Shown one piece after another: positions 10,568 through 25,461 of a stretch of 26,679 nt of DNA. Positions within the stretch are counted from its first letter, which is position 1. Each line of letters starts with the position of its first letter. The notes below the pieces were generated by a model. That model saw only the letters and a list, made by a program, of their open reading frames with translations. It did no database searches and was not told the DNA's origin. Source of the DNA: Octopus sinensis (lineage: Eukaryota); NCBI RefSeq assembly GCF_006345805.1, contig NW_021834721.1:1-26679 (forward strand). The letters are read 5' to 3'. The position numbers were made by a program, and so were the translations under genes.

Positions 10568-10745
10568 TTAAGAAGAGTGGTCCCGGTGCGCGCACTCGCA
10601 CATCCGCGCTACACATCCTACAACGACTATCTAGCAAAATAAATAATTTTTTAAAAACAAAGTAAATAAAGCACAAAAACACAAAGTAAGGATCGACTAG
10701 CTAGTGCGGATGCGCGAGTACGCGCACCGGGACCACTCTTCTTAA
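10568..10745. mobile_element. MITE with GC-rich inverted arms and TTAA ends (Kolobok-like)
   Basis: Arms 10568-10611 and 10702-10745 match at 41/44; TTAA on both sides with GA...TC termini inside; A-rich spacer. Confidence 0.8.
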
Positions 10746-18189: not shown

Positions 18190-18456
18190 TCTATAAACAA
18201 GAGCTTCTCTCTATTTTCTTTATCAACTATACATTGTTATTTAAAATAATAACTCAGTCAGACCATGTCTACATATAACCATGGTCTTACTACATGGAGT
18301 CTGCGCATGTAGGAAGAAGTGGTGTGAGAAATTTGGAAACACAAGCTGCTCCAGAAGTTCCCAAAAAAATGTCATTTATATCCAAAAAGAAAATGAAAAA
18401 TAATAAATGCAAATAAATAAATACAATTGTGGAAGAAAATAGAATTGTGTGAAAGT

Positions 18457-18546
18457 TTATTGAGTAGCTTTAGATTTCCCTTTAGCTGATTTTTTGTCTC
18501 TTTTCTTCAAACCATCCATGTTGCCTTTCAAAACATTGATATATGC
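18457..18546 (-). CDS. SRP14: SRP14 exon 5 (terminal)
   Basis: Acceptor ttctttccag|GCA; AYINVLKGNMDGLKKRDKKSAKGKSKATQ*, with the conserved NMDGLKKRDKK motif; TAA at 18459-18457. Confidence 0.96.
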   Translation of the reverse strand, partial: AYINVLKGNMDGLKKRDKKSAKGKSKATQ

Positions 18547-18653
18547 CTGGAAAGAAAGAAGCAAGAAAATATTACAGTTCTATATTTAAGAGATGAGGAA
18601 TTACGTACATTATTTACATTCGACAGATATTTGTCCTCATCTTGTTTGTTGTT

Positions 18654-18699
18654 AACACAACGTTTCGGCTGGTATACCCTCCAGCCTTCTTCAGGTGTC
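18654..18699 (-). ncRNA. Minimal type I hammerhead ribozyme motif (intact core)
   Basis: Minus strand reads GACAC-CUGAAGA-A-GGCUGG(AGGGUAUA)CCAGCC-GAAA-CG-UU/GUGUU: stem I GACAC/GUGUU, 6-bp stem II, palindromic ACGU helix III. Predicted cleavage after 18659. Confidence 0.75.
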
Positions 18700-18995
18700 T
18701 TGGGGAAATTTCGAGCCTGGGTTCTCATTCCTAAGGTATTTTTCGATGTTATCATTATTATTATTATTATTATTCAGGTCACTGCCTGGAATCGAACTCG
18801 GAATCTTGAGGTTAGTAGACCGCGCTCTTAACCACTACACCATATGCCTGTGAGCATATGGCATAGTGGTTAAGAGTGCGGGCCACTAACCCCAAGATTC
18901 TGAGTTCGATTCCAAGCAGTGACCTGAACAAAAACAACAGTAATAACATCGAAAAATACCTTAGGAATGAGAACCCAGGTTTGAAATTTCCCCAA

Positions 18996-19041
18996 GACAC
19001 CTGGTGAAGGCTGGAGGGTATATCAGCCGAAACGTTGTGTT
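18996..19041 (+). ncRNA. Second hammerhead motif copy with mutated core (CUGGUGA)
   Basis: GACAC-CTGGTGA-A-GGCTGG(AGGGTATA)TCAGCC-GAAACGTT-GTGTT. The invariant A of CUGA is G, so this copy is probably inactive. Confidence 0.6.
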
Positions 19042-19889
19042 AACAACAAACAAGATGAGGACAAATATCCGTCGAATTTAAATAATGTATGAAAATATTA
19101 ATTTTGGAACAAACGCAGGGGAGAAAATTAACAGTGAATATATTAGCAAACAAATACTGATGTGTATGATATCAGAAACAGATTATGTAATGGATATTAA
19201 TCTGGTGGGGGAAAAAAAATGACAGACTACAGAGAGCCAATTTTAACCCTTTTGATAAACCCCACTTGGGATTACTCCTAAAAGCTTCAATTTTAACCCT
19301 TTCAATACCAACCCACTAGAGACTGCTCCTAAAAACTTTATCTTGAAGTGAGCATCGTTTCTACAGCTGGATGTCTTTTCTAATGCCAACAACTTTACAG
19401 AGGTTGGGTGCTTTTACGTAGCACTGGCACAAGACACTTGCAGGACAATCCTCCTAACAGGGGCAGCAGCCTTAACACTTCTGCTGTTGAGTACAGGCCT
19501 TCTTGAGTACTGTCAAACATCGCAGTCTTCTGTTATTTTGTCTGAAAGGGTCAGCATCCTGAGGTCAACCTTCAGTATTTCATGTGATTTCTTCAGGGGA
19601 AATCTCATCTTTAATCATGTGTTCATGTTATGAGATGTTGTAAACCCTTATAAAATATGTAACACATCAACATCGCTAAGACCCCCAGTACTTGTGTTTT
19701 TTTAAGCCTGGTACTTATTTTATCGGTCACTTTTGCTGAACTACTAAGTTACAGAGACATAAGCAGAGCAACAACAGTTGTCAAGCAGTGGTGAGGGACA
19801 CGGGGACACACACACATAATAATTTGGAATGTTTTATCTCCTGGATGTATGACTTGATATGGACCGTCGTAGGGTGACTGGAGGGGATC

Positions 19890-21384: not shown

Positions 21385-21417
21385 CATCTGAAATTTATTT
21401 ACCTCCTTTTGATTTAC
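21385..21417 (-). CDS. SRP14: SRP14 exon 4 (33-nt microexon)
   Basis: Acceptor poly(t)cag|GTA; VNQKEVNKFQM matches SRP14 V..KEVNKFQM; donor ATG|gtgagt, phase 0. Confidence 0.95.
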
Positions 21418-22097: not shown

Positions 22098-22219
22098 TAT
22101 AGTGGAAATTTTCTTTTTACCTAAAGATGCTCTGAGGATACATTTATATTCTACTGTTTCATGGGATATGCTTTGTTCTGATCGGTTAGATTTTGGTTTA
22201 GGCCTAGTTCGACCATCAT
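22098..22219 (-). CDS. SRP14: SRP14 exon 3
   Basis: Acceptor ccattttag|AT; (Y)DGRTRPKPKSNRSEQSISHETVEYKCILRASLGKKKISTI (122 nt), with motifs YDGRT.P.P and KC.LRA..GKKKIST; donor ATA|gtaagt, phase 0. Confidence 0.95.
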
Positions 22220-25388: not shown

Positions 25389-25461
25389 ATCGTTTCATTG
25401 TTATATTCAATGACCCCGATGTCTTTGATCTTTGAAAAAATCTGGTGAGTTCGCTAAGAAA
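25389..25461 (-). CDS. SRP14: SRP14 (signal recognition particle 14 kDa, Alu domain), exon 2; exon 1 not found in window
   Basis: Acceptor tctatttcag|TTT; FLSELTRFFQRSKTSGSLNITMKR+T (73 nt) matches SRP14 FL.ELTR.FQ...tSGS..IT.K; donor T|gtaagt, phase 1. Confidence 0.95.

Follow-up and report, generated by a model that had tools for sequence, protein, structure and literature searches.

The presence of a hammerhead ribozyme motif in an intron raises the question whether the motif serves the gene that carries it or whether it was brought there as part of something else. Such a case is provided by Octopus sinensis, where a stretch of 26,679 nucleotides (contig NW_021834721.1; the whole stretch is called the window here) contains the gene SRP14 on its minus strand, with Pfam PF02290 matched by two of three exon frames. 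The initial annotation had placed an intact minimal hammerhead on the sense strand of the SRP14 pre-mRNA, about 110 nt before the last 3' splice site, and our measurements agree with this placement, the motif ending 107 nt and its predicted cut lying 111 nt upstream of that splice site. The following analysis shows that the hammerhead is not a feature of SRP14 but one piece of a very abundant repeat, and that the connection to this gene is probably incidental. The coordinates of all features are collected in Table 1.

Table 1. Features of the SRP14 locus and of the palindromic insertion, in positions of the window.
Feature	Position	Strand	Basis or remark
SRP14 exon	25389-25461	-	Pfam PF02290 E 7.3e-05; GT/AG ends
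SRP14 exon	22098-22219	-	Pfam PF02290 E 3.6e-06; GT/AG ends
SRP14 33-nt exon, 5' side of the insertion-bearing 2838-nt intron	21385-21417	-	GT/AG ends
SRP14 last coding exon	18457-18546	-	splice ends; spliced join in run X9
Target-site duplication, left copy	18565-18574	+	8 bp, or 10 bp with 2 nt shared with the element end
First T4 run past left arm, possible Pol III stop	18566-18569	-
Left arm, long repeat form with tail, 275 nt	18573-18847	-	family loose ends at 18573
Optional 3' extension (Penelope-type tail), 33 nt, left arm only	18573-18605	-	family ends at 18606 and 18573; accessible text of PMC3846280 and PMC11167929
Type I minimal hammerhead	18699-18654	-	descriptor match and fold
(AAT)n linker, head to body	18750-18772	-	degenerate in right arm, about 18928-18946
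tRNA-like head, left	18773-18847	-	box A 18842-18832, box B 18797-18789 (regex)
Spacer at head-to-head junction, 6 nt	18848-18853	.
Right arm, short repeat form without tail, 237 nt	18854-19090	+	arm comparison
tRNA-like head, right	18854-18928	+	box A 18859-18869, box B 18904-18912
Mirror hammerhead, A6G at 19004	18996-19041	+	descriptor; fails at A6
Target-site duplication, right copy	19091-19100	+

The structure of the motif on the minus strand is as follows. Helix I joins 18699-18695 with 18658-18654 in 5 bp including one G-U, C3 is found at 18694, and the box CUGAAGA is followed by one extra A at 18687. Helix II comprises 6 bp with an 8-nt loop and is succeeded by the GAAA box, helix III is reduced to ACGU (18663-18660), and the triplet GUU sets the predicted cut at 18659/18658, with 18658 as the first base 3' of the cut. 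This is the sole strict descriptor match on both strands of the window, and none of 1000 dinucleotide shuffles produced such a match. When folded in isolation, the 46-mer forms helices I and II (z -2.98; 1 of 200 shuffles was equally good). Rfam returned no hammerhead match for the whole window, the insert or the head alone, hence the hammerhead call is based on descriptor and fold and not on a curated model. On this basis the annotated core boxes, both stems, the ACGU palindrome and the GUU triplet were borne out, and so was the core mutation of the mirror copy. A comparison of six sequences from two loci revealed a single pair of helix II that is altered on both sides (U-A to C-G) relative to a related unit, while the pairing in this set was equalled by 32 of 500 shuffles and helix I was 67% paired.

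The left-arm motif also has the core features of hammerheads from Penelope-like elements (PLEs), namely CUGANGA, GAAA and an NUH triplet, together with an extra base between positions 9 and 10.1, the G10.1-C11.1 pair and a palindromic 15.2-16.2. According to the accessible text of Cervera and de la Pena 2014 (PMC4209133), the minimal hammerheads of metazoan PLEs are characterized by an extra base after A9, G10.1-C11.1 and a palindromic 15.2-16.2. The resemblance extends to the type I topology, the 5-bp helix I, the 6-bp helix II, the two-base palindromic helix III, the dispersed occurrence and the pairs on opposite strands; in contrast, the unit around the octopus motif is non-coding and has a tRNA-like head, and the motif occurs in about 10^5 copies versus thousands there. 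The hammerhead itself is a new member of this already known class.

The motif sits within a palindrome of 518 nt (18573-19090), whose arms are separated by a centre of 6 nt. Read outward from this centre, each arm starts with the head and continues through the AAT run into about 50 nt of body; the hammerhead comes next, and an AC-rich stretch leads to the fixed end. Between the arms there are 7 differences in 147 body positions and 8 in 75 head positions, i.e. 15 in 222 aligned positions or about 7%, and the AAT run is of unequal length. A single target duplication brackets the whole palindrome, which means that the head-to-head double represents one insertion; direct repeats of at least 9 bp were obtained by chance at 8 of 20000 random places. 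The divergence and the different AAT lengths of the arms could be taken to indicate two independent insertions or a MITE-like fold-back, or the element could be an ordinary LINE-dependent SINE that contains the motif by chance. These scenarios are very unlikely, because the one duplication encloses both arms and the 3' end differs from that of a LINE-type element: poly(A) or a simple repeat is missing there, the ends are fixed and non-repetitive, the AAT run lies inside the element, and a tail pattern with two ends is characteristic of PLEs. At 18621 the arms have a minority variant (21-28% of the DNA depth) in common, which points weakly in the same direction. The arrangement of head-to-head arms, a tail on one arm only and a target duplication of 8-10 bp, as well as two 3' ends 30-40 nt apart due to the optional tail, correspond to what is expected from mobilization by a PLE. 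The locus is an inverted double, which ruled out a retrozyme-type head-to-tail tandem with one hammerhead per unit. A 52-codon open frame (18728-18573) was rejected as a gene and is regarded as a by-product, the mirror frame having stops; its database matches are spurious ORFs without Pfam domains. Rfam matches of the miRNA type at the palindrome centre merely reflect the palindrome. On the right side, the first T4 run appears at 19102. A further palindrome of 172 nt is present in the window at 10571-10742, and several dispersed repeat families (D3-D20) with many inverted pairs are located within or near the SRP14 gene.

The same unit is found far beyond this locus. At least half of the words from 18300-18852 were detected in 17 of 24 listed sequencing runs, where insect and termite runs with 4-9% of the words were not counted as evidence. 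Four runs were mapped at the level of contigs, namely the DNA-type runs X2, X4 and X15 and the RNA-type run X9. The summed depth of the body was 1.4-1.6 x 10^5 times that of the single-copy flank in all three DNA-type runs, a rough value that gives an order of magnitude and no copy number. The flanks at the loose ends of the contigs are unrelated to each other, i.e. the repeat is short, non-coding, dispersed and of high copy number. Among the best-supported loose ends, the class at 18606 comprised 485 (X2), 424 (X4), 355 (X15) and 30 (X9) contigs and the class at 18573 comprised 262, 224, 163 and 17 contigs, respectively, and smaller classes existed at 18569 and 18575. The two main family ends coincide with the 3' ends of the right (18606) and the left arm (18573) in all four mapped runs. 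Taken together, the carrier can be described as a repeat of 240-275 nt with a tRNA-like head, an AAT run and a Penelope pLTR-like body in roughly 10^5 copies.

Traces of the family are visible in protein databases as well. The translated body frame corresponds to residues 1-36 of a gene model from Octopus sinensis and to the full length of a 51-residue model from O. bimaculoides. The former is P0002 (LOC115224785 isoform X2, a TNF-receptor-like membrane protein), in which residues 1-36 are read from a repeat copy; exonisation or an annotation artefact are both possible. A wider search returned 108 proteins, nearly all spurious ORFs over the repeat or a sister family, while P0020 and P0044 were dismissed as chance matches. 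In the spurious translations of the sister family, the 73 motif units comprised 21 with the short end, 48 with the long end and 4 others, the long end being situated about 11 codons beyond the short one. An antisense-derived piece occurred in 11 of 113 proteins, a set biased by its selection for open frames, and was placed before the sense piece in nine of them, overlapped its start in two and never followed it. Tandem units of hammerhead and tail were seen in 4 of 77 motif-bearing proteins of the sister family. Head-to-tail repeats of an approximately 129-nt hammerhead-plus-tail unit appear in P0004-P0008, P0033 and P0111, and such tandem units could form an active dimer in cis.

One genomic relative (L001) was identified by pattern search on a host-like contig in a bacterial MAG. 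Four related units are present on it, two of them arranged head to head, and the tRNA-like head is absent from these units in the part of the contig examined. The inverted arm of one related unit (L001 2590-2670; G001:C340:19574-19692) stops exactly after the GUU triplet, and contig mapping revealed a strand-switch joint at 18657, one base off the cut; as single cases, both could be traces of cleaved RNA. The respective MAG (G001, titled Rubritalea sp.) has 151 RVT_1 matches and microsatellite-rich contigs and seems to hold much animal host DNA. No other unit was detected in this MAG beyond contig C340, which itself lacks an RT ORF, hence no parent PLE was found there. An autonomous PLE with the same pLTR was likewise not found by protein searches, which are weak for a 52-residue query. 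DNA copies numbered zero in viral contigs and zero in metagenome contigs, and the protein-level search of genome contigs also gave zero copies. L002 was discarded as a chance match inside a phage ORF, and the ESM Atlas offered nothing usable.

In the heads of both arms, box A and box B are 45 nt apart, a tRNA-type spacing as expected of a tRNA-derived SINE. Only one other A/B pair of such spacing exists in the window, and it heads another repeat, a second tRNA-headed SINE at 6918-6700 (-) with a spacing of also 45. Both arms extend to about 2 nt from the expected tRNA +1 position and stop there. The head may resemble tRNA-Thr. ARAGORN with default settings made no tRNA call for the head and Rfam at default cut-offs did not call it a tRNA; at relaxed ARAGORN thresholds it was called among 22 calls, a setting that is too noisy (22-135 calls overall). 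BLAST searches of the heads against plasmids and phages gave nothing significant, a phage tRNA being matched at E 2. The contig mapping covered the body and left out the head region 18743-18852, and the head translation matched none of the 113 repeat-derived proteins; hence, the link between head and body is known only from the two arms, i.e. from one event.

Alternatively, the family could consist of solo or truncated Penelope pLTRs, with a head that merely happened to lie 5' of the element at a single source locus; the hammerhead would still be a passenger. The head is indeed outside the mapped region of the other copies, a related L001 unit is without such a head, and dispersed single minimal hammerheads as well as opposite-strand pairs 100-700 bp apart have already been described as truncated PLEs in the accessible text of PMC4209133. 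However, the termination of both arms at the tRNA +1 position, the intact boxes with tRNA spacing and the lack of an ORF-bearing parent despite about 10^5 copies, in searches weakened by the 52-residue query, make this explanation unlikely. We consider it probable that the repeat is a SINE-like non-autonomous PLE, which is transcribed by Pol III, mobilized in trans by a PLE protein through two-strand priming with the heads joined, and carries the hammerhead as a passenger. Against this reading stand the missing autonomous PLE, the head uncalled as tRNA and the head-body link from one locus. Much firmer is the combination of PLE origin and passenger status, of which we are highly confident.

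The passenger status has to be weighed against a role in SRP14 expression. The initial annotation proposed that the motif, being preceded by its own antisense arm, is sequestered in a long duplex, and in silico this was reproduced. In the fold of the full palindrome, the probabilities of helix I and helix II were both 0. The antisense arm precedes the motif in the pre-mRNA, pairing takes in 140 of the 147 body positions, and the motif was already paired in all four nascent prefixes tested that include part of it. The further proposal that this duplex is a safety device explaining why SRP14 tolerates the motif was not supported. Since the palindrome is built like a Penelope-type insertion, a cause specific to the host is not required; moreover, minimal hammerheads tested singly were inactive in vitro according to the accessible part of PMC4209133. 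The predicted burial of the motif is a by-product of the insertion. Similarly, the assertion that such hammerheads cleave efficiently as dimers was too strong: in the same source, monomers remained uncleaved in vitro while dimers and trimers had low activity, and the ribozyme of an Anolis PLE is reported as protein-dependent (accessible text of PMC11167929). A Pol III transcript starting at the centre, which was thought to lack the antisense arm and to cleave freely, is supported in its first part, with box A/B promoters pointing outward from the centre, but not in its second. In the fold of the single-arm RNA helix II forms, yet helix I has a probability of about 0, owing to a hairpin over the cut site and upstream pairing of its 5' strand. 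The ACGU pairing is worth only -1.7 kcal/mol, and the computed two-copy MFE structure is not the active dimer.

Sequence decay across the family leads to a similar view. The initial annotation had linked function to an excess conservation of the core nucleotides across family copies, and the result comes close to the absence of such an excess, the decay of core CpGs being near the level outside the core and somewhat lower at G12. In the three DNA-type runs, CpG decay amounted to 7.6-11.2% at G12, 13.3-18.0% at C11.1 and 9.1-15.5% in ACGU, compared with 13.8-16.3% at three positions outside the motif; the remaining core positions, like most non-core positions, were below 4%. Since the core CpGs decay about like others, there is no clear selection on individual copies, while the lower value at G12 leaves room for weak selection. 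The majority sequence of the family has an intact core, the copies decay about neutrally, and the deficit at G12 is mild at most. Compared with this majority, the left motif has two private changes, at N7 and from a G-U to a G-C pair, both of which are compatible with activity. Intronic hammerheads that were exapted by their host occur in few copies, have a stable helix III and are conserved above the repeat background. An exapted motif was rejected here in view of about 10^5 copies, the missing helix III and core CpG decay near background. A depth step near the cut site was set aside, because contig depth cannot show ends.

A host function would take the form of an active SRP14 ribozyme that is held in check by the antisense arm and triggered by unwinding, A-to-I editing or a Pol III RNA acting in trans, thereby tuning SRP14. 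It could be backed by the intact core on the sense strand beside the mutated mirror, by the predicted duplex sequestration, by the edited appearance of the family in the RNA-type run, and by an insertion that is maybe shared, as judged from about 20 nt of element-side letters at the left junction in organisms B and D (below the 31-nt bridging rule). However, one intact and one mutated arm are expected from neutral decay with 15 differences in 222 positions, the in vitro inactivity of monomers and weakness of dimers (PMC4209133, accessible part) speaks against it, helix I is missing from the predicted fold even when the antisense arm is left out, and none of the best-supported loose-end classes falls on the cut site, although contigs cannot show RNA ends. 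Moreover, SRP14 is normally spliced in one run, the RNA-type run X9, where a contig joins 18547 to the 33-nt exon. Regulated cleavage of SRP14 is thus very improbable, and in the SRP14 pre-mRNA the ribozyme probably rides along as an inert passenger. The insertion is 17-26 nt from the SRP14 AG, i.e. in the branch-point zone, and the duplicated target has a branch-point-like TAAT (minus strand) 25 nt before the AG; it is likely that the splice signal was preserved by the target duplication itself.

An excess of A>G and T>C changes was observed family-wide in the region 18629-18708 in the RNA-type run X9 relative to X2, X4 and X15. It amounted to 23% versus 0.1-0.2% at 18708, 16% versus 0.3-0.7% at 18629, 12% versus 0.8-3% at 18693 and 8% versus 0.1-0.3% at 18687, the extra A of the motif. 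This pattern resembles A-to-I editing on both family strands, an interpretation that is unproven, with runs that differ in organism label.

The comparison with known systems supports the assignment to Penelope. In the accessible text of PMC3846280, the Penelope insertions of Adineta vaga are described as follows: their pLTRs are inverted, one of these may carry a 31-bp tail, the target duplications measure 8-10 bp, and most junctions are head-to-head. The PLE protein of Anolis (PAc) cuts and extends both strands, prefers ATT and starts reverse transcription at two sites bounding the tail; its ribozyme cut only with the protein, cleavage was unnecessary for insertion, and no RNA-seq reads end at the cut (PMC11167929, as far as accessible). 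The octopus insertion resembles these Penelope elements in its head-to-head arms, the one-arm tail of about 30-35 nt, the 8-10-bp duplication and the AT-rich ATT target. An ATG precedes the two ends by 35 and 68 nt (18640-18573, minus strand), a geometry like that of the ORF start in rotifer Pen2a (12 and 22 codons). Unlike autonomous Penelope elements, the 518-nt insert has no RT/GIY-YIG ORF, its ATG frame stops at codon 9, and Pol III-type boxes take the place of a TATA/Inr promoter.

The repeats Sm-alpha and Sj-alpha of Schistosoma are Pol III-type, hammerhead-bearing and SINE-like (PMC6765202, accessible text) and share with the octopus repeat the order of Pol III-type promoter and hammerhead as well as the non-autonomous nature. 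They form tandem self-cleaving units (PMC6765202) with a canonical hammerhead (PMC4209133; accessible parts of both), whereas the octopus repeat is dispersed and possesses a PLE tail, its hammerhead is a minimal one situated in the middle of the element, and copying proceeds through the cut site. The animal non-LTR retrozymes (PMC7229834; bioRxiv 10.64898/2026.07.22.740005) and non-autonomous Chlamys such as MRC1 (PMC8557442) are described in the available text as tandem PLE derivatives. They are likewise non-coding, carry a hammerhead or pLTR and are proposed to use PLE enzymes in trans, but in contrast to the octopus repeat they are head-to-tail tandems, and retrozymes make circular RNA. The available parts of PMC7229834 and PMC8557442 mention no tRNA head for them, and the word tRNA is absent from the available text of the bioRxiv report. 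The octopus SINE OR2 is a CORE-SINE (PMC4758252, available text). The repeat family may well be already catalogued under another name. In 1994, Ohshima and Okada reportedly described three tRNA-derived SINEs from octopus, in a size class similar to this repeat; the elements are alike in the tRNA-derived head and the host, and the literature search returned no link of those SINEs to hammerheads or PLEs. Within the full-text literature, comprising few subscription papers and no supplements and lying outside Repbase and Dfam, neither a tRNA-headed SINE mobilized by a PLE nor, in the same texts apart from those databases, a hammerhead repeat of octopus was found. By combining a tRNA-like head with a pLTR-like body and with the insertion marks of PLEs, the carrier appears to be a new form of a known kind of element, with the head-body link coming from one locus.

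Such an element could have arisen at the SRP14 locus in the following way. Putative Pol III transcription from box A and B would give an RNA running from head to tail, whose pLTR-like part may be bound by a Penelope-like RT/GIY-YIG protein that would nick the two strands of an AT-rich target at points 8-10 nt from each other. Each nick would then prime cDNA synthesis on uncleaved RNA, a distal start keeping the tail and a proximal start giving the form without tail, before the two cDNAs would join head to head. The hammerhead would be inherited pLTR cargo that is kept intact in source copies and presumably decays neutrally after insertion. In the intron, the motif is predicted to be locked in a duplex of about 230 bp, which is probably an ADAR substrate. 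Arkhipova et al. (PMC3846280, accessible text) put forward a different origin of such junctions, in which an antisense template primes itself and double priming is not involved.

From this analysis, the carrier repeat matters more than the motif. SINEs are defined as parasites of LINEs. A tRNA-headed element with Penelope insertion marks, if true, adds a third class of SINE partners. A natural substrate of 240-275 nt with about 10^5 insertions would make it possible to map the minimal cis signals and the target preference of the PLE protein. Furthermore, the family would directly test two-strand priming versus self-priming for head-to-head doubles, and also whether selection on the pLTR hammerhead acts only in source copies. 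The octopus is characterized by very high hyper-editing and dsRNA potential (PMC5625713, accessible part), and self-palindromic insertions could feed this A-to-I hyper-editing. In its widest form, which we hold with somewhat less than even confidence, the repeat, with about 10^5 octopus copies of a Pol III head joined to a pLTR that has hammerhead and tail, may represent a bona fide class of tRNA-derived SINEs that parasitise PLEs and not LINEs, often form head-to-head palindromes by two-strand priming and thereby provide a major source of the dsRNA behind the hyper-editing in octopus.
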